This document shows positions 7,455 through 32,000 of a stretch of DNA of 32,000 bases, piece by piece. Numbering within the stretch: position 1 is the first letter of the stretch; every line of letters starts with the position of its first letter. The translations under genes were made by a program, and so were the position numbers. The notes under the pieces were generated by a model that was given only the letters and a program-made list of their open reading frames with translations, did not search any database and had not been told where the DNA came from. Source of the stretch: Planctomycetales bacterium (GTDB lineage Bacteria > 4484-113 > JAFGCY01); contig CP060262.1 of assembly GCA_022646745.1 (NCBI GenBank), forward strand, positions 3,750,001 through 3,782,000, read 5' to 3'.

Positions 7455-8429
7455 TCACTTCAGCCAAACAAGTCCATGCGCCTCGACTTTCAATGATCCA
7501 TTTGCCGTGAAATCCTCTGTACCAGGCAACGGAACTGATATGGTGTACTGCACCATGTGGGCATCCTCCCTGGCAGGGATCGTGAAACTAAACTCGGTAA
7601 TGCCTGTCTTGGCAACCGGGTAATTGAAGTAGCCTGGATCCAGAGGTTCATATCTATCGGCGTTTGCTTCCACAGTGTTGTCCTTATCAAGTTCAGGTAT
7701 ATATACCTTTACATTGTATCCAGCCCGCAGTTCCACGGGTAAGTCAAAGAGGTATTCATGTTCGATTCGAGCACTGACCTGTACGTTGCCATTCTCCAGC
7801 TGCTTATGCAAGTTAAGAATCGTGATTGGTTTTATCTTGTCTGACTGGTCCAGCACCTTGCGCAATACACCTGCGGTGTTTTCATCTATGGTTATACGGG
7901 TGATTACCTTGCCATCCTCGTTCAAAAGATAGCTTGACGGAATGAACGGAGCAAGCCTGTTCAGGGACTGCTTCACTTCCGGTTGTGATCCCATGTAAAG
8001 CACCGGATAGGCTATTCGATTGTCATCCAACTTGCTGATCAGCCCTGCAAGGTAGTCCAGGTCATCCTTGGAAACAGAGATCAGCTGGAAATCCCCACGA
8101 TGTGAAAACTGCTCATCAATGCCAATCAAGTCCGGCAACTGCCGGGTACAGGGTGCTCACCAGCTGGCTGTGAAGTTCAGCAGCGTCCATTTGCCCTGCA
8201 GGGAATCCTGGGTGAGAACTTCTCTTGAAGAAGCATCCATCCCGGTGAAATCCGGGAGTCGCAATCCAGGCGAAGGTGGGTAATTCGCTTTCAGCTTGCC
8301 ATTGAAGCTTGCCAGTTCAACCGGCAGAGGCTTTACAGGGGGATCCTGCTGGGGAAAGTAGCAGGACAGGCTGAATCCTGACAACACAAGCACTGCAACA
8401 GTGGCAATCCGGATTGTCAAGTGTTTCAT
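7455..8429 (-). CDS. Thioredoxin-fold thiol:disulfide oxidoreductase (TlpA/ResA-like) with in-frame UGA read as selenocysteine (U-A-P-C redox motif). Has a signal peptide and an extra ~150-aa C-terminal beta-rich domain.
   Basis: Track ORFs 8157..8558 and 7455..8138 are in the same frame and are separated only by TGA (8157-8159) plus 6 sense codons. The joined reading is GKWTLLNFTASW-U-APCTRQLPDLIGIDEQFSHRGDFQLISVS...YPVLYMG...IPSSYLLNEDGKVITRI. This is the canonical TlpA/ResA layout (G K . . L . N F W A . W C . P C), with TGA exactly at the first Cys of CxxC. The start is chosen at ATG 8429, with GGAG 6 nt upstream, giving MKHLTIRIATVAVLVLSGFSLSC (signal peptide, possible lipobox). TGA is used as a true stop by at least five neighbouring genes. 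Confidence 0.65.
8132..8145 (-). promoter_or_regulatory. Candidate bacterial SECIS hairpin (CCGGC-AGUU-GCCGG) 11 nt downstream of the in-frame UGA
   Basis: On the mRNA strand: UGA GCACCCUGUAC CCGGCAGUUGCCGG. This is a 5-bp all-GC/CG stem with a 4-nt loop, AGUU, that contains G and U. The stem begins after exactly 11 nt, which is the spacing reported as required for the minimal E. coli fdhF SECIS. The stem is short for a SECIS, hence the moderate confidence. Confidence 0.4.
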
Positions 8430-19507: not shown

Positions 19508-20308
19508 ATGAAAACTGACGACTTACAAATTCCTGCTGCAGCTGCAAAGCTGATAAGAAATCAGGGCAGAGTTACTCAGGTCATTCTGACAATGATGGAG
19601 TATCAGGTCCAGGAATATGGCACTGCAATCGTCAGAGTGAATGCGATGAAAGCGGTATTGCAGTCAAGAAACCTTATGAACAAAAGCATGGCAGTCACGA
19701 AGAGCAGCTTGACGGAAATGGTCCTGACCCGATCAGACCTGGTCAGGCTATTCGTGGATAAATCCGGGAATGTCCACTTCACACGTCTGAATGATCTTCT
19801 GCCTGGCAAGTTCGTTTCGCTTTCACGCCTTCAAAAGGGAATTGGATTGGAGTCATACAACCTGACAACCCCGCCCTACCCCGCACCGGAATTTTATCAG
19901 GTTGTTTCAAAACAGCCGGTGTTCCTGCGCAAGTCCGGTACAGAGGAGGAAATGAGAATTGGCACTCATCAGCCGACACCTCGAGAGCCGAGGAAGTATC
20001 GCATCAGACTAAATGATTCGTCTGCACCTGTAAGGAAGGAATACGTACAGATCAGAATTGAGGAGAGCAAAAAGGACAATCAGCCTGTCAAGGGTCAGGT
20101 TCGAAGACGGAAGGAAGCCAGGATTCCCAAACGATGGGCTGACAAGAAGCTGACAACCGAACTGGAACGTGAGATCATCGAGCGAAACACACGATACCGC
20201 GAAAAGCTGCGGAAACTAAGGCTGCTGCATGATCCCCGAAAACGAGGCAAGCACGACGCATGGCATTCAGCAATCCTCAATGGCATCGGTGGGAAGTTCA
20301 AGCTGTAG
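19508..20308 (+). CDS. Hypothetical protein (266 aa) with a strongly basic C-terminal third
   Basis: It is the only long ORF in this span. The C-terminal part is rich in K/R (KGQVRRRKEARIPKRWADKKL...RYREKLRKLRLLHDPRKRGKHD), suggestive of nucleic-acid binding. I saw no clear Shine-Dalgarno sequence and no recognisable domain. It sits immediately upstream of the high-GC island. Confidence 0.45.
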   Translation: MKTDDLQIPAAAAKLIRNQGRVTQVILTMMEYQVQEYGTAIVRVNAMKAVLQSRNLMNKSMAVTKSSLTEMVLTRSDLVRLFVDKSGNVHFTRLNDLLPGKFVSLSRLQKGIGLESYNLTTPPYPAPEFYQVVSKQPVFLRKSGTEEEMRIGTHQPTPREPRKYRIRLNDSSAPVRKEYVQIRIEESKKDNQPVKGQVRRRKEARIPKRWADKKLTTELEREIIERNTRYREKLRKLRLLHDPRKRGKHDAWHSAILNGIGGKFKL

Positions 20309-20390
20309 CAAAGACTTCCTAGAGTTCAAACCCTACCTCTAGCCACACACTATCTCCTCCCCTAAAATGATCCGAACCAAGGGAGGCCTA

Positions 20391-23300
20391 ATGACTGGTG
20401 CGGCGGATTCGGTTGATCTGGGGCACAACACCCCGCGAAACGGGATGCTGGCGGTAGTGCGCAACCGCCGGGGGATCATCAGCAATGTGCGGCAGTTCGA
20501 CGCGAACGAGGCTGGCCGCTACCACCTCGTGCAGATCGACTACAAGGACGAGCACCTGCCCACGAATGAGGAGCTGGTCTGGGAGCTTGAGCCGGTCCGC
20601 CAGGTGCTGCAGCCCAACGACCTGCCCAGCATCAAGAGCGAGCCGATGCTGCCTGCGGACTTCGACGCCCTGGTCCGCGCCGCACGCTGGACCGCGATCA
20701 GCCCCTACCTCGACCCCGACGAGTCCGGACCGCTGGATCGCCTGCCTGCCGCTTCGCCCTTTCATGGCGCGGTGGAGATTGAAGACTACCAGCTGGTGCC
20801 CCTGCACAAGGCGCTTGAGATGCCGCGCGTCAACATGATGATTGCGGATGATGTTGGCCTTGGTAAGACCGTTGAAGCCGGCCTGATTCTCTCCGAGCTG
20901 CTGATCCGCCGGCGCATCAACCGAGTGTTGATCCTCACTCCGGCTTCGCTGCGCCTGCAGTGGCGCGATGAACTGGACTCAAAGTTCTCCCTGCCGTTTG
21001 AAGTCGTGGACCGCGACAGCACCCTGAAGCTCAAGCGCTCACTCGGAATTGATGCCAACCCCTGGCGAAGCAACTCCCGCATCATCGCTTCCTACCACTA
21101 CCTGCGCCAGCCGGACATCCTTGAGGAGTTCCTGGCCGCCAGCCAGGTCCGTGAAGGCTCCGCCACTCTGCCCTGGGACATGCTGATCGTTGACGAGATC
21201 CACAACCTGATGCCGGCACCTTTTGGCGAGGACAGCCAGCTCTGCCAGATGCTGAGGCGGATTGCCCCGATGTTCGAGCACCGCCTGTTCCTGACTGCCA
21301 CGCCGCACAACGGCCATACCTATTCCTTCACCGGGCTACTGGAGATCCTCGACCCGGTGCGCTTCAGCCAGAATTCTGAGCTGGGCGAGGCCGCCAGCAA
21401 GCGCGTGCCGCAGGTCGTTGTCAGAAGGTTGAAGCGGGAGATCAACGAACGGACTGATCCTCCAAAGTTCTGCCGGCGCATGCCTCCAACAGCCATCCCA
21501 CTGACCTTCAGCAAGGAAGAACTGCGCCTGATAGATGCCTTTGATGAATTCCGGGCTGCCGTCCGGCAGCTGATGCAGGACTCCACCCGCAAGCGCCGCC
21601 AGGCGGGGAACTTCGCGCTGGAAATCCTCGGAAAGCGCCTGCTCAGCGGACCGATGACATTCCTTGATTCATGGCAGCGCTGCAAGTCCGGTCTGTCTGA
21701 ATCATCGCTGGCCGATGACTCTGAAGTGATCACCGCCGTCAAGGCGGCCAATGAGGAGAACGCTGACGACCGCGAATCGGAGCAGAACGCCTCCATGGCA
21801 GCCGGGGTAGTAGGCTCATGGCTGAAGGCATTTGCAGACGACCTAGCCGCAGAGATCCATGCGATAGACGCCGCCGCCGCCGCGCTCGGCGTGGTAATGG
21901 AAACAAGGATCACAGCGCAGGACCCACAGGCTGATGCCCGGTTCACAGCCATCTGCGAGCTGCTGGACAGCAAGCTGCGTGACGGCAAGGAGTGGAGGAA
22001 GGACGAGCGTATTGTCATCTTCACCGAGTACAAGACCACGATGGACTACCTCCTGCGCAGGCTGCAGGAACGCTTCAAGGGAAATGACGACCGCTTCCTC
22101 CAGCTCTTCGGTGGGATGGATGACAACGAGCGTGAGGAAGTCAAGGAACGATTCAGTGACCTGTCCGATCCTGCCCGCATCCTGATCGGCACAGACGCTG
22201 CCTCGGAAGGTCTAAACCTGCAGGCTACGGCCCGTTACCTGCTGCATTACGACTGCCCCTGGAATCCATCCCGGCTGGAGCAGCGCAATGGCCGCCTCGA
22301 CCGCTACGGTCAGCTGCGTGATGTGTATGTCCATCACTTCGTCAGCGACCAGGCTGCGGACCTCAAGTTCATGGACCTGCTGATCCGCAAGGTGGAGCAG
22401 ATCCGCGAGGACCTTGGTGCGACCGGAGAACTGTTCGATGAGGCGATCCACAAGCGCCTGATTGACGGCGAGTCCGTTGAGGATGTGCAGCTCTTCCTCG
22501 ATGCCAATGTAGAAACCGCACGCAAGGCAGTCGCAATTGAGGCTGACGACAATTTTGTCCTGTCCGATGATCTCAAGCGCAAGCTGCAGGCCCTGAAGGA
22601 TGAACTGGACCTCGACCCCGAAGCGTCGCGCCTGACGCTTGATGCAGCGATGGTGCATGATGCCAACGGCAGCAGGCCGCAGCTTACAGAGCCGGACGAA
22701 AAACTGCTGTTCAATGTTGTCAACCCGAACCTGCCAGGCTGGGCCGAAACGATAGATGAGTCCGTGCGTGTGGGCAGTGAGCGCAAGCTGAAGGGAATAA
22801 TGCCTCGTCTGACGTTCAGCACTGAGTGCTTCAAGGAAGTGCGGGAAGGGCGGGAGATCTTCATTCCGCGAAAGGATGCCGCGCTCCTGCACCTCTCGCA
22901 TCCGATGATGCGCAAGGCGCTGACGACGCTGACCCGCTGCCGCTTCCCCCAATTCGGCCAGGGCCGGGAATATTCCCGCTGGGCTGTACGCCTCGGCGGT
23001 GTGCCGGATGGCAGCGATGCCCTGATCATCCTGCACCTGGAAGAACTGGCGGTCAACGAGCTGCGCGAGACATTCCACCACTGGATCAGCAGCATCTGCA
23101 TTCCCATAAAGGATGGCGAACTGCAGGAAGCCCTGCCGCACTGTCCGGCATGCCTGCTGGGTGACAGCCAGGCTTGCACTGACAACAGTCGCAAGGCAGC
23201 TGCGCAGGGCATGGCTGACGAGTTCGAGCCAGAGCTGAAACTCTTCATCCGCGAACGCCGGGCCAGGCTGGCAGAGATGCTTCAGGCCCAAATGGAAAGC

Positions 23301-23675
23301 GACCTTGACAAGGCCCTGAAGGATGCCGAAGCACGCTACCAGAGCCGCCAGGGTGAGATTTCCCAGCTCATCCAGGAGCGCACCATGAACCGCCTGATGC
23401 AGGAGATTGTCAGAATGCGGCAGCAACAGCAGCAGGGCAATCTTTTCCATAACAAGCAGGACCTGGACGAACTTGAACAGAAGCTGGAACGGCGCGAAGA
23501 GGAACTGCGGCGCATGCGCGAACAGCTGGAGCATTCCCGCGAGCAACTTGCCAAGGAAAGGGAACGCGTCACCAAGCTGCTGATTCCGAAGCGCTACACC
23601 CTTTCCGGCGAAGCACAGGTCTTCCCGGTGGCACTTGAAGTGCGCCTGCCCCTGCAGCCGGGAGGTGCCCTGTGA
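20391..23675 (+). CDS. drmD: SNF2-family helicase/ATPase (DISARM class 1 DrmD-like) with a C-terminal coiled-coil tail
   Basis: GGGAGG lies 6 nt upstream of the ATG at 20391 (the track start at 20367 lacks an RBS). SNF2 motifs: YQLVPLHKAL, motif I DDVGLGKT (20847-20870), LILTPASLRLQWRDEL, motif II DEIH (21192-21203), LTATPHNG, and helicase-C blocks LIGTDAASEGLNLQ and PWNPSRLEQRNGRLDRYGQ. The last ~130 aa are heptad-like and Q/E/R-rich. The drmD label rests on gene order (SNF2, large N6A methylase, helicase), not on a homology search. Confidence 0.8.
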   Translation: MTGAADSVDLGHNTPRNGMLAVVRNRRGIISNVRQFDANEAGRYHLVQIDYKDEHLPTNEELVWELEPVRQVLQPNDLPSIKSEPMLPADFDALVRAARWTAISPYLDPDESGPLDRLPAASPFHGAVEIEDYQLVPLHKALEMPRVNMMIADDVGLGKTVEAGLILSELLIRRRINRVLILTPASLRLQWRDELDSKFSLPFEVVDRDSTLKLKRSLGIDANPWRSNSRIIASYHYLRQPDILEEFLAASQVREGSATLPWDMLIVDEIHNLMPAPFGEDSQLCQMLRRIAPMFEHRLFLTATPHNGHTYSFTGLLEILDPVRFSQNSELGEAASKRVPQVVVRRLKREINERTDPPKFCRRMPPTAIPLTFSKEELRLIDAFDEFRAAVRQLMQDSTRKRRQAGNFALEILGKRLLSGPMTFLDSWQRCKSGLSESSLADDSEVITAVKAANEENADDRESEQNASMAAGVVGSWLKAFADDLAAEIHAIDAAAAALGVVMETRITAQDPQADARFTAICELLDSKLRDGKEWRKDERIVIFTEYKTTMDYLLRRLQERFKGNDDRFLQLFGGMDDNEREEVKERFSDLSDPARILIGTDAASEGLNLQATARYLLHYDCPWNPSRLEQRNGRLDRYGQLRDVYVHHFVSDQAADLKFMDLLIRKVEQIREDLGATGELFDEAIHKRLIDGESVEDVQLFLDANVETARKAVAIEADDNFVLSDDLKRKLQALKDELDLDPEASRLTLDAAMVHDANGSRPQLTEPDEKLLFNVVNPNLPGWAETIDESVRVGSERKLKGIMPRLTFSTECFKEVREGREIFIPRKDAALLHLSHPMMRKALTTLTRCRFPQFGQGREYSRWAVRLGGVPDGSDALIILHLEELAVNELRETFHHWISSICIPIKDGELQEALPHCPACLLGDSQACTDNSRKAAAQGMADEFEPELKLFIRERRARLAEMLQAQMESDLDKALKDAEARYQSRQGEISQLIQERTMNRLMQEIVRMRQQQQQGNLFHNKQDLDELEQKLERREEELRRMREQLEHSREQLAKERERVTKLLIPKRYTLSGEAQVFPVALEVRLPLQPGGAL

Positions 23676-26600
23676 GCCAGCCGATGCATGACTGGTGGGC
23701 CAGCCTGCGCCATGGCGGAATGCTCGTTGACATGAACCGTCTGGTTCTGCTGCTTCCGCAGGCTCTGGAACCTGAGAAGCTGCTGCAATTCCACCGCGAG
23801 GACAAGCTGCGCCGCGAACTGGCTGAATTCCACAGTGACCCGGAGAAGCTGCGCAACCAGCTCGTGCGCTTCATACTGGAGCATATCTGCGGGATCGGCA
23901 CGGATGATGGCAAGTGGCTGGCAGGAACGAACATTGATTCATCCTGGAACAGACATGGACTGGCCGGGGAATCCATAAAACCGCAGTTGCTCTGGCAGCA
24001 TGCTGCATCGGATGCGGTATTCCCGGTGTTCATTGACAGTTCAGGCCGGCGTTTGGGGATTGGCAGGAGCCGCCGCGAATACACGCGGGTGCTGCGTTGG
24101 CTGCGCAGTGGCCGGCAGCAGCTGGCAATCCTGACGAACGGATTCCAGTGGCGGATCATCTTCGCGGGCCTTGACTACGACGCCTGGTGCGAGTGGGAGT
24201 CCTCCGCCTGGTTCAGCGAGGGGCAGCCCAGCGCGGAGCTGGCCGGATTCTGTGCGCTGGTCTCAACACAGCTCTGGCTGCCCGCTGGTGAGGGACAGCC
24301 CAGCCCGCTGGTGGATGCAGTCAATGACAGCCGCAAGGGCCAGGCTGAACTGTCCGCCGTGCTGGGTGAGCGCGTTCGCAAGGCTGCCGAAAAGCTGATC
24401 ATCGCGCATGCCCCGCTGCTCAGCGACCAGTTCCCGCATATCAAGCCTGAGGAAATCTACCGCGCCTCAGTGCGCATGATCATGCGCATCGTGGTGCTGC
24501 TGTTCGCGGAAAGCCGTGAAGGCCTGCTGCCGCGTGACAATGAGATCTACCACAACTCCTACAGTGTGCAGCAGCTGCGCGATGCCCTGCGCAACCGCAG
24601 CGATTACCGGCTGAAGCATTCGACTTCAGCCTGGCCGCGCCTGCTGGCCCTGATGTACATGGTTTACAAGGGATCGCCGCATGAGGCGGTGCCGATCCCG
24701 CAGTATGGCGGGGAACTGTTCCAGCCCGGCAGCAGGGACAGCGCGGACGGACTGCAGAAGGTGCTGCACATCTTTGAGAACGGCTGCTACCAGTCAGATG
24801 TACTGATCACGGATCTGCAGATCCGCGAGATCCTCAACCTGCTGACAATGACGGAAATCAGCATCCGCCAGGGCCGCAGCCGCATGCGCGTGCCTGCGCC
24901 GGTGGACTTCTCCAGCCTGGACAGCGAGTACATCGGCATCCTCTATGAGGGCCTGCTGGACTTTGAGCTGCGCCAGGTCGGCAAAGACCAGCCCATCGTC
25001 TTCCTGGCTGTCGGCAACCAGCCAGCCCTGCCGCTGGAAACCCTGGAAGCGATGGATGACAAGGACATCAGGAACCTGCTGGAGAAGATGAAGGACAAGT
25101 CTTCCTCATCCGACTCTGAGGATGAGGATGCAGACGAGGACAGTGCCAATGAGGGAGAGCAGGACGAGGCAGAGGAAGACGCCGAAGATGAACTTGGGGT
25201 TGAAGCTGCTGCCGAGGATGAGGAATCTGACGACGACCAGCGCGCAACGTTGAGGCAAAGAGCGGAGGAATGGGCGCGCAAGGCAGTGATCGCGGCAAGT
25301 CTGGTCAAGAAGACAAAGAGCAAGAAGCAGGATGCCCAGGCTCAGTACGAACGTGATGTTGCCAATAAAGCCAAGGCACTGATTACAGCAGTGCTGCTGC
25401 CAGGTCAGTGGTACCTCGTGCGCTGGGGAGGAACCCGTAAGGGCAGTGGCACTTTCTACACCCGGCCCCAGCTGGCGATCCCGACCGCGCACCGCACGCT
25501 CAGGCCGCTGGCCTACGACCCGCCGACTGGCAGCGACGGGCAGCCTGATACCAGGGCAGCCGCCGCCCTATGGACGCCGAAGCTGCCGGAGCAGATCCTG
25601 GCGCTGAAGGTCTGCGACCCGGCCTGCGGATCAGGCTCTTTCCCGCTGGCAGCGATGCGCTTCCTCACCAACGCTCTGTTCGAGTCACTGATCTTCCATA
25701 AGCGGATTGACGAGCATGCGGACCACTCAGTCCTGCAGCTTATCGAGGGCAGCACGGAGCAGGCCGATGCCGGCAGTGAGCGCATCCCTGTTCCCATGAC
25801 AGATGACAACTTCGAGCAGCGGACCAAGGCCGTGCTGAAGCGCTATATCGTGGAGCGCTGCATCTACGGCGTGGACCTCGACCCGCTTGCCGTCGAACTC
25901 TGCCGCCTGAGCCTCTGGATCGAAACCCTGGACCGCAGCCTGCCGATGACCTTCCTCAACCACAAAATCAAGTGTGGCAACAGTCTCGTCGGTGCCTGGT
26001 TTGACCAGTTTGCGCATTACCCGGTGATGGCCTGGGAACGCGAGGCTGGCGACACCAGCCATACCAACGGGGTGAACTACGCGCCCAAGGTGATGACGAA
26101 GCAGATCAATGAAATCAAGAAGCAGGTCAAGGCACAGATCATCGGCATCATAGACGACCGCCTGCAACTCAGCGGAGTTGACCTGCAACAGGCCCAGCAG
26201 AGCCATGCCGATGCAATGCGGGTGCTCAATGAAATTCACGGGATAGGCATCAATGACGCGCAGAAGCGAACGGAGAAGTATGAAGAGCTGCTGGAAGAAC
26301 CCGATTACATCAGGCTGAAGGAAAGCTTCGATCTCTGGTGCGCCATCTGGTTCTGGCCACTCAGCCGCATCTGCGATGCTCCATTGCCGACGCCTTTTGC
26401 AAAAGGTGAGATTGACGACGAGACGATTAAGCAAGTGAGAGACCTTGCAGCTTTCTTCCGCTTTTTCCACTGGGAGCTGGAATTCCCGGATGTATTCAAT
26501 GCTGATAGCTCAGGTTTTGATGCCATGCTGGGCAACCCGCCCTGGGACATTGCCAAGCCAAACAGCAAGGAGTGGTTTTCCGCGCAGGACCCACTGTACC

Positions 26601-29020
26601 GTACCTATGGCAAGCAGGAAGCACTGGCCAAGCAGCGGGCCATGTTCTCCACGCCGCGAGGCATGGGAGTCGAGGGAGACTGGCTGGCTTACTGCGACTA
26701 CTTCAAGGCCATGAGCAACTGGGTGAAGTACTCCGGCTTCCCCTTTGGCAACCGTGAATCCGAGAATTCATCCGGATCGCGTAGCCATGACTTCAGCCTC
26801 GGAACTGGTGGTAAGCACAGCTTTGCCAATTCCGTTGAGCGACACGAACTGTGGCGCAAGAAGAGCCTGGAGTCGCGGGGATTCGCAGATACGGAGCATG
26901 TCTTCCGGCACCAGGGCAGTGGGGACATCAACCTCTACAAGACTTTCCTGGAACAGGCGCATGCCTTGCTCAGGCCGAATGGACGTATGGGCTTCATCGT
27001 ACCCAGCGGGGTATATTCCGACTTCGGCACGATTGACCTGCGCCGCCTGTTCATAGAGCATTGCCAGTGGGAATGGCTGTTCGGATTCGAGAACCGAGAG
27101 GGTATATTCGACATCCACCGCAGCTTCAAGTTCAACCCGCTGGTGATCCAGAAGGGTGGTGAAACCCAGGCAGTGCGCACGGCCTTCATGCGCCGCGACA
27201 TCTCAGACTGGGAGAATGGCGAGGACTTCGAAACAGCCTATCCGCGTGAGCAAGTGCAGCAGTTCAGCCCCAACAGCCTGGCAATCCTGGAGATTCAGTC
27301 CGATAGGGACCTGGAGATCCTCACGAAGATTTACAGCAATTCAGTGCTGCTTGGCGACCAGGGGCCGGACGGCTGGGGCATCAAGTACGCAACTGAATTC
27401 CACATGACGAATGACTCCAGGCTCTTCCCGCCCAGGCCGAAATGGGAGGAGTGGGGTTACATCCCGGATGAGTACAGCCGCTGGGTCAAGGGACCCTGGC
27501 GCTCGGTCGTTGAACTCTGGCAGCAACTCGGGGTTGACCCGGCCCGGCCAGTTCCGCTTGATGCGGCCTGCCAGCAGGCTATAGAGGCAGGCATTGCCAG
27601 CGGAGAAGTGGAGAGAACAGGGGAAATCAACCACAGAGGCACAGAGGGCACAGAGGATTCGGAAAACAGCAACCAGGCCAGGCGGCTGCGCATCGCCCAG
27701 CCACCCTACGACCGCCTGCCCATCCCGCGTGCTGATATCCCCGAGGGCATCATCCTCAGCCGTGACGGCCAACACTTCATACACGAAGACGATATTCCGG
27801 TTGTCACCTTTACGGAAGCAAACGGCAAGGTGCTGACAATCTCCGAGGGCAAGGGTAAGAGCAAGAAGACGCGAGAAGTGAGAGGCAAGGCGATTGCACT
27901 GCCATTGTATCAAGGGGCAATGATTTGGTTGATGGATTATTCATTCAATGGTTACGCAAGCGGTGCAGGGAACAGAACTAGTTGGGAAAATGTGCCTTGG
28001 AGTTCAAAGCAGATAAATGCTCAGTTCATGTTGCCATCAGTATTAATGGATGGAGAATCATCAATTCATCGCTGGTCCCTTCGTGATATCTCCAATGCCA
28101 CAAATCAAAGATCATTCATTTCTGCTTTACTACCTGATTATCCTGCTGGCAACTCTGTACCTCTTCTGAAACCAAGCCGAGGTGAAAGGTCAGAAGTATT
28201 GCTTGCTGGGACAGCTGCAACTTTCGTGTTTGACTTTGCCGTTCGCCTGAGAATGACTGGCATGCACTTGAACTACTTCATACTGGAAGAGCTGCCGCTG
28301 CTTGTTCCAGATTGCAGTGAATATTTTGTAATCTTGACTGCCAAGCTCAACTTGGACAACAGATTGTTTGCAGGTTCCTGGCTGAAGAATAATACAGGAA
28401 ACGAAGTTAGCTCAGTGAATGCGCTCTCGAGGCATGAGCGAGTCCGCCTGTTCGCAATAATGGAAGCGTTGATGATGGGATTTTGGGACTTGTCTGCAAC
28501 TGATGCATGCCGTGTAGTCGCAGGTTGTGATGTGCCCTTAAGAGATATGGCGGGATTAGCAGCAAAGCTCGACGGAACAGGCTTCTGGCGCGTTGACAAG
28601 GACAAGCATCCCGAGCATCGCCTGACTGTGCTCAGCCTCGTGGCCTTCCACGACCTGATGCAGCATGTGGAAGCCTGCGGCGGGGACCGGGAAGCCGGTA
28701 TCGCCTCCTTCATGGCCCAGAATGACGGCGAGGGCTGGATGCTGCCGGAAAGCCTGCGCCTGGCGGACTACGCCCTCGGGCATGACGAGCGCGCAAAGGA
28801 GCACCAGCCGGTGCGTGAGTGCTTCGGCCCGCGCTTCTACGACTGGCAACTGGCACAGACCCCCGAGGAGAGCTGGAAGGAATGCCACCTGCACGTCCGC
28901 AACCTGCTGGGCAAACAGGGCTACCAGGACCTGCTGGATGAACTGGCGGGCAAGAAAGTGGAGAAGAAGTCGGACAAGCCCGCTGGCAACGGCGGGACGC
29001 TGTTCGGGGAAGATAATTAA
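23672..29020 (+). CDS. drmMI: Very large (1782 aa) gamma-class N6-adenine DNA methyltransferase, Eco57I/PglX-like (DISARM class 1 DrmMI-like)
   Basis: The GTG start overlaps the SNF2 stop (GTGA, 23672-23675), with GGAGG 6 nt upstream. The AdoMet motif I is VCDPACGSGSFPLAA (~25610-25650). The catalytic motif IV is NPPW (26534-26545, in GNPPWDIAKP), and motif I precedes motif IV as in gamma-class enzymes. The N-terminal ~600 aa contain an ILTNGFQWRII block like the N-terminal modules of PglX / type IIG enzymes. The C-terminal ~450 aa contain LPLYQGAMI and RDISNATNQRSFISALLP blocks. The long antisense ORFs here are high-GC shadows. Confidence 0.8.
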   Translation: MSQPMHDWWASLRHGGMLVDMNRLVLLLPQALEPEKLLQFHREDKLRRELAEFHSDPEKLRNQLVRFILEHICGIGTDDGKWLAGTNIDSSWNRHGLAGESIKPQLLWQHAASDAVFPVFIDSSGRRLGIGRSRREYTRVLRWLRSGRQQLAILTNGFQWRIIFAGLDYDAWCEWESSAWFSEGQPSAELAGFCALVSTQLWLPAGEGQPSPLVDAVNDSRKGQAELSAVLGERVRKAAEKLIIAHAPLLSDQFPHIKPEEIYRASVRMIMRIVVLLFAESREGLLPRDNEIYHNSYSVQQLRDALRNRSDYRLKHSTSAWPRLLALMYMVYKGSPHEAVPIPQYGGELFQPGSRDSADGLQKVLHIFENGCYQSDVLITDLQIREILNLLTMTEISIRQGRSRMRVPAPVDFSSLDSEYIGILYEGLLDFELRQVGKDQPIVFLAVGNQPALPLETLEAMDDKDIRNLLEKMKDKSSSSDSEDEDADEDSANEGEQDEAEEDAEDELGVEAAAEDEESDDDQRATLRQRAEEWARKAVIAASLVKKTKSKKQDAQAQYERDVANKAKALITAVLLPGQWYLVRWGGTRKGSGTFYTRPQLAIPTAHRTLRPLAYDPPTGSDGQPDTRAAAALWTPKLPEQILALKVCDPACGSGSFPLAAMRFLTNALFESLIFHKRIDEHADHSVLQLIEGSTEQADAGSERIPVPMTDDNFEQRTKAVLKRYIVERCIYGVDLDPLAVELCRLSLWIETLDRSLPMTFLNHKIKCGNSLVGAWFDQFAHYPVMAWEREAGDTSHTNGVNYAPKVMTKQINEIKKQVKAQIIGIIDDRLQLSGVDLQQAQQSHADAMRVLNEIHGIGINDAQKRTEKYEELLEEPDYIRLKESFDLWCAIWFWPLSRICDAPLPTPFAKGEIDDETIKQVRDLAAFFRFFHWELEFPDVFNADSSGFDAMLGNPPWDIAKPNSKEWFSAQDPLYRTYGKQEALAKQRAMFSTPRGMGVEGDWLAYCDYFKAMSNWVKYSGFPFGNRESENSSGSRSHDFSLGTGGKHSFANSVERHELWRKKSLESRGFADTEHVFRHQGSGDINLYKTFLEQAHALLRPNGRMGFIVPSGVYSDFGTIDLRRLFIEHCQWEWLFGFENREGIFDIHRSFKFNPLVIQKGGETQAVRTAFMRRDISDWENGEDFETAYPREQVQQFSPNSLAILEIQSDRDLEILTKIYSNSVLLGDQGPDGWGIKYATEFHMTNDSRLFPPRPKWEEWGYIPDEYSRWVKGPWRSVVELWQQLGVDPARPVPLDAACQQAIEAGIASGEVERTGEINHRGTEGTEDSENSNQARRLRIAQPPYDRLPIPRADIPEGIILSRDGQHFIHEDDIPVVTFTEANGKVLTISEGKGKSKKTREVRGKAIALPLYQGAMIWLMDYSFNGYASGAGNRTSWENVPWSSKQINAQFMLPSVLMDGESSIHRWSLRDISNATNQRSFISALLPDYPAGNSVPLLKPSRGERSEVLLAGTAATFVFDFAVRLRMTGMHLNYFILEELPLLVPDCSEYFVILTAKLNLDNRLFAGSWLKNNTGNEVSSVNALSRHERVRLFAIMEALMMGFWDLSATDACRVVAGCDVPLRDMAGLAAKLDGTGFWRVDKDKHPEHRLTVLSLVAFHDLMQHVEACGGDREAGIASFMAQNDGEGWMLPESLRLADYALGHDERAKEHQPVRECFGPRFYDWQLAQTPEESWKECHLHVRNLLGKQGYQDLLDELAGKKVEKKSDKPAGNGGTLFGEDN
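27629..27656 (+). repeat. Solo copy of the CACAGAGG-triplet repeat, in frame inside the methyltransferase (encodes NHRGTEGTE)
   Basis: AACCACAGAGGCACAGAGGGCACAGAGG. It matches the repeat at 29019-29046 at 26 of 28 positions and is in the same orientation. Confidence 0.85.
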
Positions 29021-29046
29021 CCACAGAGCCACAGAGGTCACAGAGG
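29019..29046 (+). repeat. Left inverted repeat, AACCACAGAGCCACAGAGGTCACAGAGG (three tandem CACAGAG(C/G) octamers)
   Basis: Read directly. Its first two bases are the last two bases of the methylase TAA stop. Confidence 0.9.
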
Positions 29047-29055
29047 AAAACGAAT

Positions 29056-29433
29056 ATGGAAGGAAACCGGGATCCGTTGACAGAACAGATAATCGGGGCT
29101 GCCATTGAAGTGCACCGTGCTGTCGGCCCCGGTTTACTTGAGTCAATCTATGAAGAGTGCATGTGCCGCGAACTTGCCATACAGGAACTGTCATTCCAGC
29201 GGCAGGTGCCAGTCCCGCTGATTTACAAGGGTGTACGCCTCGAAAACCCATTGCGGATGGACCTGGTAGTGGAAGACCAGGTTGTGCTTGAACTGAAAGC
29301 CGTTGACAAACTGTCCGGCCTGCATGAGGCTCAGCTATTGAGTTATCTGAAACTGGCTGGCAAGAGACGGGGCTTGTTGATGAATTTCAACTCCGAGAGA
29401 CTTGTGGATGGAGTAAAGAGGATGGTCCTTTGA
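29056..29433 (+). CDS. GxxExxY family protein (small PD-(D/E)XK nuclease-fold protein)
   Basis: 125 aa, with GAGG 9 nt upstream of the ATG. It contains the family signature G-L-L-E-S-I-Y (in VGPGLLESIYEECM) and a D...E-x-K core (RMDLVVEDQVVLELKAV). Confidence 0.85.
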   Translation: MEGNRDPLTEQIIGAAIEVHRAVGPGLLESIYEECMCRELAIQELSFQRQVPVPLIYKGVRLENPLRMDLVVEDQVVLELKAVDKLSGLHEAQLLSYLKLAGKRRGLLMNFNSERLVDGVKRMVL

Positions 29434-29454
29434 TAATGACGCTGAATTTGAATT

Positions 29455-29481
29455 CTCTGTGCCCTCTGTGGCTCTGTGGTT
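29455..29481 (-). repeat. Right inverted repeat (reverse complement AACCACAGAGCCACAGAGGGCACAGAG)
   Basis: The plus strand reads CTCTGTGCCCTCTGTGGCTCTGTGGTT. Its reverse complement differs from the left repeat at one position (G vs T). Confidence 0.9.
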
Positions 29482-29515
29482 GGAATTCTTCTCATGCAAT
29501 GTTGGCGGTGCTCAA

Positions 29516-32000
29516 ATGGCACTGAACCCGATCAGCTACACAGAGAAGATCGTCCGCAGTTTCCTGCGTTACCAGCTCTCCGCGTATCCCTTCACTGACG
29601 AGAAGCTGTATGCGCAGATGCGCGGCTTGCTGAACCTTGACAACGAACGCCGCACGCCGCTGCTGAAGGGTCCGTACATCACCCTGTCTCGCAGTTTCCG
29701 CGAAGGTGCAACCGTCAAGCAGATGATTGACGAGGGGATCTTCCATCCGCACATGGCGCATGTCACGCAGGGGATCACGAACCTGCGCGGACACCAGGAG
29801 CAGGCCATCCGCGCGGTGCATGCGGGCAAGGCAACGCTGGTATCCACGGGTACCGGCTCCGGCAAGACGGAATGCTTCCTGTACCCGATCATCAGCAAGT
29901 GCCTGCAGCTCAACCAGGCTGGCGAGAAACCGGGCATCAGCGCGGTGATCGTGTACCCGATGAATGCACTGGCCGAGGACCAGCTGGACCGCCTGCGCGG
30001 CCTGCTGGCTGGCAGCGGCGTGAGTTTCGGGATGTATGTCGGCAAGACGCCAGAGCATGAGCGCGAAGTAAGCGGCAAGCGCATGAAGGCGGGCAGCACC
30101 CGCGCGGACTACCTTGCTGCACTGGAGGAAGCCAGGAAGAAGGGCAAGGGCGACACGGTGCATCCGGTTGAGGAAATCTGCAGCCGAGAGATGATGCGCA
30201 CGCCCGGCAGCCAGCCGCGCATCCTGCTGACGAACGTGAAGCAGCTGGAACTGCTGCTGACTCGGCAGAAGGACATCGAGCTGTTTGACAATGCCCGGCT
30301 GGATTTCCTCGTATTCGACGAGGCACATACCTTCACCGGGATTAACGGCGCGGAGACGGCCTGCCTGATCCGCCGCCTGATGAAGTACTGCGACGGGGTG
30401 ACAGCGCACACGACCTGCATTGCCACTTCCGCAACCATCGTGGACAAGAAGAACCCCCATGCCGCAGAGCACTTTGCTGAGCGATTCTTCGGTGTACCGG
30501 CAAGTGAGGTTGCCTGCATCCATGAGGACTATGAGGCGGATGCCTGGCAGGATGAGCGCCGCAAGCCGGCGCAGCCGCAGGCGAACCTGTCCGAGCTTCT
30601 GAAGCGGACACTGACAGCAGTAGACCATGCTGATGCGGACACTGAAGTGCGCGAGGTGTACCGGCAGCTGACTGGCTGGGAACTGGCCGCAGGGGATTGG
30701 AGCGAGGCACTGTTTGATGCGCTTACAGCGAACGAACTTGCTTACCAGATTCGCCAGGCGATAGACAGGCCTCGTGCCCTGGAGAGCCTGCTGAACGAAC
30801 TCTCCGCCCGTGCTGGACACGATGTCTGCGAAGAGGAGCTGCTGATATACCTGGCCCTGGGAGCAGCAGCCTTCAAGGTTGACAGGCCCGTGTTCAGGCC
30901 GGTGGTGCATGCATTCATTCGAGGAGTGCCCGGCGCGGTTGTCAGCTTCCCTCCCGGCAGTGATGAGCCAAAGCTATATCTGAGCAGCGAAGACCAGATA
31001 AAGGAATTCGAGGGCCAGGGCAATATCTGGCGGCCACCGGTGTACGCCTGCACAACCTGCGGCCAGCATTACATGGTGAGCTGGCTGAAGGACTTCCAGT
31101 TCATCGGAGCAAGGCCGGATGGCGGCCAGCTGACTGAAGGTGGAAGCGGCTACTGGGAAGCCCAGACGGAAGAAACGGGTGGGCAGCGCGTTGTGCTCCT
31201 GGATCGCGTGATCGGCATGGATGATGACGAAGAACTCGGCGAGCATAAGCGCATGCACGAGCTTCACTTCTGCCGGCATTGCGGGTCAGCCTATGAAACA
31301 GAATCAGGCAGTTGCCAGGCCTGCTCGGCGACAGGCAGCAGGGTGAAACTGTATGCGCTGCTCAGCTCCAGGGACAACCCCGGCTACCTGAACTACTGCG
31401 TATCCTGCGGTTCCAAGGGTCGGCCCCAGACGGGCCGCTACCGTGAACCGATCCGCCCTGTGCGCGCGGTCAATGTCTCAGACGTGCATGTGCTGGCGCA
31501 GGATATGGTGCAGAACGCCCAGCGCAAGCGCCTGCTGCTGTTTGCTGACAACCGCCAGGATGCAGCATTCCAGAACGGCTGGATGAAGGACCATGCACGG
31601 CGCTTCCGCCTGCGCGGACTGATGAGCGAGGAACTGAAGAAGGGCGCAATCTCGGTCGGTGACATGGAGTCACGGCTGAATGACCTGCTGGCAGCTGACG
31701 AGGTGCTGTCGCGGGCACTGATACCGGAAGTCTGGCGGGCAGAACCCAGTGCAGGTGCAGCACATGACAACCAGAGGCGCTACTTCCTGCGCATCCAGGT
31801 GCTGCGTGAACTGACAATGGCAGCCAACCAGCAGATCGGCCTCGAACCATGGGGCCGGATGCGGGTGGACTACATCGGCCTGGACAGCAGCGGGCAGTTC
31901 TTCCAGAAGTGGGCCAACAAGCTTGGAATCCCTCCGGAGGACCTGCAGGGTGGCGTCGCAGCGGTGCTGGACCAGCGCCGCCGGCAGAGAATCCTGCACG
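29516..32000 (+). CDS. drmA: DEAH-box superfamily 2 helicase, N-terminal 828 codons. The gene continues past the window end. DISARM DrmA-like.
   Basis: Hand translation from the ATG at 29516 (MALNPISYTEKIVRSFLRYQLSAYPFTDEKL...) stays open to position 32000. It is not in the ORF track because it has no stop in the window. Motifs: Q-like GHQEQAI, motif I GTGSGKT (29849-29869), Ia VYPMNALAEDQ, motif II DEAH (30317-30328), motif III TSAT (30425-30436), and a later block LLLFADNRQDAAF. The 472-aa minus-strand ORF 29492..30910 is an antisense shadow. The drmA label comes from gene context only. Confidence 0.8.
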   Translation, partial: MALNPISYTEKIVRSFLRYQLSAYPFTDEKLYAQMRGLLNLDNERRTPLLKGPYITLSRSFREGATVKQMIDEGIFHPHMAHVTQGITNLRGHQEQAIRAVHAGKATLVSTGTGSGKTECFLYPIISKCLQLNQAGEKPGISAVIVYPMNALAEDQLDRLRGLLAGSGVSFGMYVGKTPEHEREVSGKRMKAGSTRADYLAALEEARKKGKGDTVHPVEEICSREMMRTPGSQPRILLTNVKQLELLLTRQKDIELFDNARLDFLVFDEAHTFTGINGAETACLIRRLMKYCDGVTAHTTCIATSATIVDKKNPHAAEHFAERFFGVPASEVACIHEDYEADAWQDERRKPAQPQANLSELLKRTLTAVDHADADTEVREVYRQLTGWELAAGDWSEALFDALTANELAYQIRQAIDRPRALESLLNELSARAGHDVCEEELLIYLALGAAAFKVDRPVFRPVVHAFIRGVPGAVVSFPPGSDEPKLYLSSEDQIKEFEGQGNIWRPPVYACTTCGQHYMVSWLKDFQFIGARPDGGQLTEGGSGYWEAQTEETGGQRVVLLDRVIGMDDDEELGEHKRMHELHFCRHCGSAYETESGSCQACSATGSRVKLYALLSSRDNPGYLNYCVSCGSKGRPQTGRYREPIRPVRAVNVSDVHVLAQDMVQNAQRKRLLLFADNRQDAAFQNGWMKDHARRFRLRGLMSEELKKGAISVGDMESRLNDLLAADEVLSRALIPEVWRAEPSAGAAHDNQRRYFLRIQVLRELTMAANQQIGLEPWGRMRVDYIGLDSSGQFFQKWANKLGIPPEDLQGGVAAVLDQRRRQRILH

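Follow-up and report, generated by a model that had tools for sequence, protein, structure and literature searches.

The DNA examined here is a 32,000-nt stretch of contig CP060262.1 from a Planctomycetales bacterium (hereafter the window, by whose positions all coordinates are given unless another sequence is named). From ~20.3 kb to the window end, it is occupied by three long and one short open reading frames (ORFs) on the plus strand, whose matches to hidden Markov models (HMMs) have E-values from 1e-22 to 0, far beyond chance. The long ORFs encode an SNF2 helicase, a 1782-aa N6-adenine methyltransferase and a DEAH helicase, and the short one encodes a GxxExxY protein. An initial annotation of this DNA had described the helicases and the methyltransferase as a defence-type operon, and their ORFs, Pfam domains and motifs confirm that description. 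The locus is very probably an ARMADA Type I anti-phage system with the gene order armA-armB-armC, lying in a high-GC region with recombinase genes downstream. ARMADA was defined by the combination of a YprA-like helicase closest to that of Druantia, a BrxHII/RapA-like helicase and a PglX-like methyltransferase, the latter two being common to ARMADA and class 1 DISARM (Bell et al. 2025, bioRxiv 10.1101/2025.09.15.676423).

The first gene, armA (20391-23675, plus strand), encodes an SNF2, RapA/BrxHII-like helicase homologous to DrmD. Its mechanically delimited ORF spans 20367-23675 (1102 aa), but the ATG at 20391, preceded by a GGGAGG ribosome-binding site, is the better start and yields a 1094-aa product, the same length as that of the public gene call; because the latter begins at this ATG, an exact look-up of the 1102-aa ORF came back empty, whereas those of the methylase and the GxxExxY protein succeeded. 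Pfam identifies SNF2-rel_dom and Helicase_C domains in the protein, and the motifs GLGKT, DEIH, TATP and QRNGR are found at residues 164, 276, 310 and 639, respectively, counted from 20367. In PADLOC it matches DrmD at 668 bits and BrxHII at 246 bits, and in NCBIfam it matches DISARM_DrmD at 667 bits, passing the equivalog cutoff of 610, and RapA at 163 bits.

The second gene, armB (23672-29020, plus strand), encodes a 1782-aa PglX-like, Eco57I-family N6-adenine DNA methyltransferase homologous to DrmMI. Its GTG start (23672) overlaps the armA stop codon TGA (23673-23675), forming the GTGA through which the two genes had been proposed to be coupled (23672-23675). Pfam identifies an Eco57I domain, and the gamma-class core presents DPACGSG at residue 649 and NPPW at residue 955. 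The size of the protein is normal for its family, in which over 100 full-length orthologues, with ~50-70% identity, measure 1700-1850 aa. The best PADLOC match is REase_MTase_IIG (1358 bits), followed by DrmMI (412 bits); matches to the PglX models of PADLOC and NCBIfam are weak, and a profile search of Protein Data Bank (PDB) sequences with the armB alignment returned no match.

Two peculiarities that the initial annotation ascribed to armB are present, but turn out to be traits of its family. The acidic insert corresponds to a D/E-rich linker at residues ~478-545 (25103-25306), and its presence in 25/25 aligned orthologues identifies it as a family feature rather than an insert peculiar to this locus. 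The supposedly mosaic C-terminus corresponds to a drop in identity to orthologues, to 0.25-0.33, at residues ~1440-1620 (27989-28531); the catalytic core has values of 0.7-0.87, and residues 1681-1740 reach 0.83. Such a drop is the pattern expected of a specificity-determining region, which explains the mosaic appearance, and a variable part of this kind is typical of the family. Judging from the pattern of variability, residues ~1440-1620 are probably the target-recognition part of the enzyme; residues 1463-1543 gave weak matches to type II methyltransferase models in PADLOC and NCBIfam.

The N-terminus of ArmB contains a nuclease-like alpha/beta module (residues ~80-180; 23909-24211), recognized by AlphaFold modelling of residues 1-470 (pLDDT 79) and Foldseek comparison, in which the type IIL enzyme DrdV (7lo5; prob 0.92, E 0.02) was the best match, together with Hjc resolvases. 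None of the Foldseek matches of the ArmB and ArmC models reached E ≤ 0.001, and they were taken as supportive only. Pfam HMMs applied to the isolated ArmB N-terminus yielded nothing useful at E-values up to 10. In the orthologue alignment, near-invariance is confined to D122 of the module and a conserved (D/E)xK motif is lacking, the window protein presenting Ser-Gly at the position where many orthologues have Glu-Lys. Because of this lack of conservation, the module is probably catalytically inactive, as expected of a PglX/DrmMI-like modification subunit. The initial claim that no restriction endonuclease domain is evident therefore holds for catalytic motifs in the methylase, but not for its N-terminal fold, which is PD-(D/E)xK/type IIL-like, and the predicted nuclease of the locus lies at the armC C-terminus, outside the window.

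These features bear directly on the possibility that the 1782-aa protein is a stand-alone Type IIG/IIL restriction-modification enzyme, which cuts as well as methylates and has unrelated helicases beside it. Both its best PADLOC model and the DrdV-like fold of its N-terminal 470 residues point in this direction, and ArmB shares with Type IIL/IIG enzymes (MmeI, DrdV) and with BREX PglX a gamma-class Eco57I-type core with NPPW and a layout in which an N-terminal nuclease-like module is followed by a helical spacer. In contrast with these enzymes, however, ArmB has no conserved PD...(D/E)xK motif, is much larger, contains an acidic linker and is encoded inside a helicase operon. The translational overlap of armA and armB, the co-occurrence of the three genes across phyla and the requirement of all ARMADA II genes for defence also argue against a stand-alone enzyme, which we consider extremely unlikely.

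The third long gene, armC, encodes a YprA-family DEAH helicase-nuclease and, as the initial annotation had stated for the locus, is cut by the window end: from its ATG at 29516 it is still open at 32000, so that the N-terminal 828 of its 1804 codons lie inside the window (29516-32000, plus strand). Pfam identifies a DEAD domain in this part, and the motifs GTGSGKT, DEAH and SAT are located at residues 112, 268 and 305. The armB protein sequence is recorded on three public contigs, one of which is NCBI JAGRNS010000040.1, and a public stretch, L001, was used as an extension of the window, a use validated by its 100% identity to the window over the 2601 bases compared. The gene order on L001 is SNF2 helicase, Eco57I methylase, PDDEXK_3 and then an 1804-aa protein with DEAD, Helicase_C and MZB domains, the MZB/DUF1998 domain being fused at residues 1540-1618 of this full-length ArmC. 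The portion beyond the window is predicted to comprise the rest of RecA2, an OB-CON-DUF1998 region and a C-terminal Vsr-like nuclease domain, and a four-cysteine cluster in it (C1606, C1610, C1614 and C1617) is invariant in orthologues. Full-length ArmC matches the DruE models of PADLOC at 250-376 bits (DruE1, 376), compared to 54 bits for DrmA. Consistent with these scores, a PDB profile search with 21 ArmC orthologues ranked 9tu7 first (4.5e-71), identified as E. coli O157 DruE (Druantia III), and YprA/MrfA 6znp second (2.7e-35).

Inside the window, ArmC contains a zinc-binding module with four CxxC motifs (C512/C515, C586/C589, C600/C603 and C628/C631; 31049-31408). These motifs, initially read as atypical Zn-ribbon-like insertions, are indeed present, but their eight cysteines, at residues 512-631, are all invariant in 21 orthologues and the module is a feature of the clade. 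A zinc beta-barrel module, inserted where RecA2 begins and bearing two or more CxxC, is common to ARMADA, BRIGADE, TALON and Druantia helicases (bioRxiv 10.1101/2025.09.15.676423), and the four-CxxC region of ArmC appears to correspond to it.

The C-terminal 140 residues of ArmC carry an invariant TPDV...YLDG...H...D..IR signature, with D1712, D1731 and H1738 invariant. The AlphaFold model of this domain (pLDDT 81.6) has the element order alpha-beta-beta-beta-beta-alpha-beta and a PD-(D/E)xK-like topology, and the top Foldseek matches, though weak (E 0.05-0.3), are all PD-(D/E)xK proteins (TnsA, R2 endonuclease, Cas4 and 3hrl), 3hrl being also the structure that Bell et al. give for the 'active? 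Vsr domain' of Type I. The model thus lends support to a predicted Vsr-type PD-(D/E)xK nuclease domain at the ArmC C-terminus. In a large subgroup of ArmC orthologues (~56% identical, ~1970 aa; for instance, that of Vulcanococcus L012, 10001-15928), the Vsr-like domain is followed by an extra C-terminal Peptidase_S24 (LexA-like) domain, which the window ArmC does not have.

The armC product is recorded as two identical proteins, UNM08185.1 and MCB1221951.1. Table S1 of Bell et al. lists UNM08185.1 (CP060262.1, H7A35_15240) and MCB1221951.1 (JAGRNS010000040.1, KDL30_14920) each as 'ARMADA Type I helicase' (bioRxiv 10.1101/2025.09.15.676423), and membership of ArmC in the ARMADA Type I clade is taken from this listing. 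Because both accessions stand in Table S1, the identity of the locus is settled: it is an already catalogued ARMADA Type I member, and a relative of DISARM rather than DISARM. The fallback proposal of the initial annotation, an undescribed helicase-methylase-helicase system, is consequently superseded, the architecture having been named ARMADA in 2025 with this very ArmC protein in Table S1.

The three arm genes are intact, their catalytic motifs are present, and the gene set and helicase clade match those of ARMADA Type I. The locus shares with Type I systems an SNF2 ArmA, a PglX-like ArmB and an ArmC with fused OB-CON-DUF1998, CxxC modules and a C-terminal domain predicted to be Vsr-like, as well as the absence of ArmD. 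It differs in its armA-armB-armC order, here in Planctomycetota, and in the GxxExxY cassette between armB and armC and the repeat remnant inside armB. The 'general' order of Type I is armC-armA-armB, and the A-B-C order is reported for 'many archaea and cyanobacteria' (bioRxiv 10.1101/2025.09.15.676423). The armA-armB-armC architecture is also found in L008 (79% identity) and in Vulcanococcus L012 (56%).

The initial annotation had instead read the locus as class 1 DISARM, with the order drmD-drmMI-drmA and with drmB (DUF1998) and drmC (PLD) expected downstream of 32000. As regards homology, the first two identities stand, since ArmA scores above the DISARM_DrmD equivalog cutoff of NCBIfam (667 versus 610) and the first two genes are recognized by the PADLOC models for DrmD and DrmMI (DrmMI at 412 bits). 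Furthermore, a PADLOC v2 model labelled 'DrmA' (PDLC02572) aligns with the SNF2 protein ArmA over its full length (488 bits), a match from which it follows that older DISARM models absorb ARMADA proteins. However, DrmD- and DrmMI-type components also occur in ARMADA and are therefore non-discriminating, and the third identity fails: gene 3 is DruE-like (376 versus 54 bits for DrmA), no DrmB match appears among the 25 of 33 PADLOC families listed, and the position of motif I at residue 112 leaves no room for the EVE-like, trigger-loop and jelly-roll region at the N-terminus of class 1 DrmA. Nor do the expected downstream genes materialize. On L001 the DUF1998 domain is fused within the 1804-aa helicase rather than encoded separately, no PLD gene is present within 4 kb downstream or elsewhere, and recombinases on the opposite strand follow armC. 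The absence of separate DUF1998 and PLD genes, which the initial annotation had itself named as evidence against its reading, refutes class 1 DISARM, and we regard this assignment as exceedingly improbable.

The resemblance to class 1 DISARM is nonetheless substantial, encompassing a homologous SNF2 helicase and N6-adenine methylase and a common logic, that of a YprA-family helicase with DUF1998 plus a nuclease. The difference lies in how these parts are distributed: in DISARM, separate genes encode the helicase, DUF1998 and the PLD nuclease, and DrmA has an EVE-like N-terminus, whereas the window ArmC fuses all of these functions in one protein of a Druantia-like clade with a Vsr-like nuclease domain. 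Druantia, in turn, provides in DruE the characterised relative closest to ArmC by sequence, with insertions after RecA1 and within RecA2 in common. Its partners are different, the window encoding an SNF2 helicase and an m6A methylase and no DruH, DruA-D or DruM/F/G, and its C-terminal nuclease domain is of the PLD type, in contrast to the Vsr-like domain predicted for ArmC. Membership in Druantia was considered and rejected, as the locus has a DruE-like helicase but no type-specific partners, and the 266-aa ORF upstream of armA has no PADLOC or Pfam match.

Within ARMADA, the A-B-C order is also that of Type II, which additionally encodes ArmD, a RelE-GajB helicase (bioRxiv 10.1101/2025.09.15.676423), and the locus could accordingly be read as a Type II system that lacks armD. 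Besides the gene order, such a reading finds some support in a few ArmC relatives (Rubripirellula L027, L043) with a GajB-like gene right after armC. Against it, a tblastn search of L001 with E. coli ArmD gave no match, an ArmD-like gene is absent from 57/60 ArmC relatives, and Table S1 assigns the protein to Type I. Using references for ARMADA II (L015) and Druantia III from the E. coli Sakai genome, we found armA, armB and armC to share ~25-32% identity with their ARMADA II counterparts in most of the aligned segments. The identity of ArmC to E. coli Type II ArmC (25-32%) does not exceed that to E. coli DruE, which fits Type I rather than Type II. The window shares with the E. coli O157 Type II system (z5899-z5902) the A-B-C order, the Walker A/B motifs of ArmA and ArmC and the NPPW of ArmB; it lacks ArmD, and its ArmC, of 1804 aa, has a single C-terminal nuclease-like domain, whereas Type II ArmC has 2113 aa and additionally contains EEP and a second Vsr domain. 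An armD-less Type II system is thus hardly credible, and the Type I assignment is retained.

As a separate observation, a GajB/ArmD-like helicase gene lies directly after armC in L027 (15838-17877), L043 (15793-17817), L029 (6629-8428) and L021 (7509-9023). These helicases are 37-38% identical to E. coli ArmD and come mostly from Planctomycetota (L027 being Rubripirellula, and L029 being labelled Paceibacterota). The presence of such a gene after some Type I armC genes makes the boundary between the two types less sharp.

Between armB and armC lies the GxxExxY cassette (29019-29481, plus strand), which the initial annotation had correctly located in the operon. It consists of a gene (29056-29433, plus strand) encoding a 125-aa protein of the PD-(D/E)xK superfamily (Pfam PDDEXK_3, 1e-41; TIGR04256, 2e-43), bounded by 27-bp terminal inverted repeats (29019-29045 and 29455-29481) that are 96% complementary. 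The same cassette occupies the same site in L008 (9504-9966), right after the armB stop codon, with 93% amino-acid identity. Between the window and L008 the cassette shows a dS of 0.41 and a dN/dS of 0.105, compared to a dS of 1.05-1.34 for armA, armB and armC, indicating that it is under purifying selection and shares a younger common ancestry than the operon. Divergence climbs again directly outside the cassette repeats, and this behaviour fits that of a discrete mobile unit.

A pattern search for the cassette repeat gave three matches against 0.23 expected, revealing a solo terminal repeat, AACCACAGAGGCACAGAGGGCACAGAG, inside armB (27629-27655, plus strand), where it is in frame and read as ...INHRGTEGTE... 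within a linker of ArmB that is variable and indel-rich in the orthologue alignment. The insert is found in the window lineage and in the L008 orthologue, and a different insert occupies the same position in one more orthologue (P0145). In the L008 armB (7985-8127) both repeat arms are in frame and translated, with no ORF between them, forming a miniature derivative of ~140 bp; the window armB keeps only the left arm of this miniature cassette copy. Neither GxxExxY nor the repeat remnant within armB turned up in text searches of Bell et al.

The cassette and the repeat remnant could also be taken as signs of decay, the insertion of the former and the in-frame presence of the latter having inactivated the system. 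A mobile cassette does separate armB from armC, and the remnant is translated inside armB. On the other hand, all ORFs are intact with all catalytic motifs present, dN/dS between the window and L008 is 0.11-0.19 for armA, armB and armC, the remnant sits in the variable, indel-rich linker just described, and most relatives carry larger inserts at the armB-armC junction. We therefore consider a decaying or disrupted locus very unlikely, and an intact ARMADA Type I operon remains our interpretation.

An alignment-based search recovered 403 ArmC relatives, of which 80 were kept at the species level (L016-L095), whereas a search of genome contigs with the single ArmC protein as query returned no relatives. 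Upstream flanks of 9 kb or more were available for 56 of these relatives, and in 42 of the 56 an armB gene precedes armC in the same orientation. In these 42 the gap separating the two genes measures 70 bp to 9.4 kb (median 4.2 kb), exceeding 1 kb in 36, so that the cassette, presented initially as a variation of this locus, is one small instance of a general property of the subclade. ORFs in the gaps were identified by Pfam as M78 peptidase with HTH, AAA_15/21, Schlafen, Macro, Fic and AbiEii, and by PADLOC as CapP, RmrA, AriA, NsnB, SoFic, DarG, PtuA and AbiEii. These data suggest that the armB-armC junction of ARMADA Type I operons recurrently serves as a slot for cargo genes; text searches of Bell et al. 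gave no passage on such a slot.

Most likely, then, the GxxExxY gene is a small mobile cassette in an insert-tolerant junction, and it is probably not a core component of the system. A more specific proposal, which we put forward tentatively and to which we give somewhat less than an even chance, is that the junction is a dedicated slot for defence and toxin genes (DarG, SoFic, Septu PtuA, PARIS AriA, AbiEii and M78/HTH), used also by the inverted-repeat-bounded GxxExxY mobile element, which left ORF-less miniatures in frame in armB. In a stronger version of this proposal, the retained GxxExxY nuclease-fold protein may modulate or complement ARMADA in the window lineage.

GC content rises from ~0.48 to ~0.60 at the armA start and stays at ~0.60 throughout the operon, compared to ~0.48-0.53 in the flanks. 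Downstream of armC, every gene on L001 lies on the opposite strand: a Phage_int_SAM_1 fragment, two genes without an assigned function, a serine recombinase and DUF2924. The GC jump at ~20.3 kb and the recombinase genes directly downstream suggest a foreign origin of the ARMADA operon, as cargo of an integrated element; no direct repeats flanking the operon were found in the available sequence. The recombinase-type genes lie at 21369-24942 of L001, corresponding to ~35040-38613 in window numbering, and the large serine recombinase is 507 aa long. The 20 kb upstream of the operon contain unremarkable genes for surface proteins and regulators (TPR, fn3, PKD, CarboxypepD_reg and an ECF-type sigma factor). 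Just 5' of armA, the 266-aa ORF (19508-20308, plus strand), with a GC content lower than that of the operon, has no match in Pfam, PADLOC or NCBIfam. A scan for promoters and terminators gave matches at chance level, with no terminator-like site between armB and armC. Elsewhere in CP060262.1, ~54 genes downstream, Table S1 of Bell et al. records a second ARMADA Type I helicase (H7A35_15510 / UNM08238.1), and the sister metagenome-assembled genome also has a second Table S1 ARMADA Type I helicase (JAGRNS010000030.1).

By homology with ARMADA Type II, which has been tested in E. coli, and with DISARM and Druantia III, a mechanism can be outlined for this system. ArmB would place an N6-methyladenine mark on host DNA, its variable C-terminal region determining the target motif. 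Incoming DNA, if unmarked or partly single-stranded, would be loaded with ArmC and the SNF2/RapA-like ArmA, both of which would translocate along it. ArmC would act as a YprA-like 3'-5' helicase equipped with zinc modules and a canopy of OB-CON-DUF1998, and its predicted C-terminal Vsr-type PD-(D/E)xK domain would cut invader DNA, leading to direct, non-abortive phage clearance. In E. coli, ARMADA II protects from many phages without abortive infection, cells being neither killed nor arrested, and its defence depends, in addition to the full gene set, on the Walker motifs of ArmA and ArmC and on the NPPW of ArmB, as confirmed by deletions in the native host.

Several points weigh against the assignment of the locus to Type I and against its proposed mode of action. 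Bell et al. do not explicitly give the A-B-C order of Type I for Planctomycetota, and the cassette between armB and armC could affect the co-expression of armC. The Vsr assignment of ArmC draws on Foldseek matches of low significance (E 0.05-0.3, none below 0.001), and Pfam HMMs applied to the isolated ArmC C-terminus detect no Vsr domain at E-values up to 10. Experiments cover Type II ARMADA only, and the activity of Type I, its methylation motif and its nuclease activity are predictions.

The main value of these results lies in the correct annotation of the locus. HMM libraries label such loci piecemeal, as DISARM DrmD for the first gene in NCBIfam and as DrmD, a type IIG enzyme and DruE in PADLOC v2, and readers and pipelines consequently tend to call them DISARM or hybrids; existing DISARM models seem to include ARMADA proteins and will mislabel loci of this kind. 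ARMADA Type I is a large family that has been catalogued already, and the residual novelty is modest, residing in the armB-armC cargo slot and in how the GxxExxY cassette behaves, neither of which changes the identity of the locus. What the locus offers is an intact Type I example with A-B-C order in Planctomycetota, a possible test case for Type I, together with a cargo slot and a GxxExxY cassette with its in-frame miniature that may be of interest for studies of defence-island organisation.

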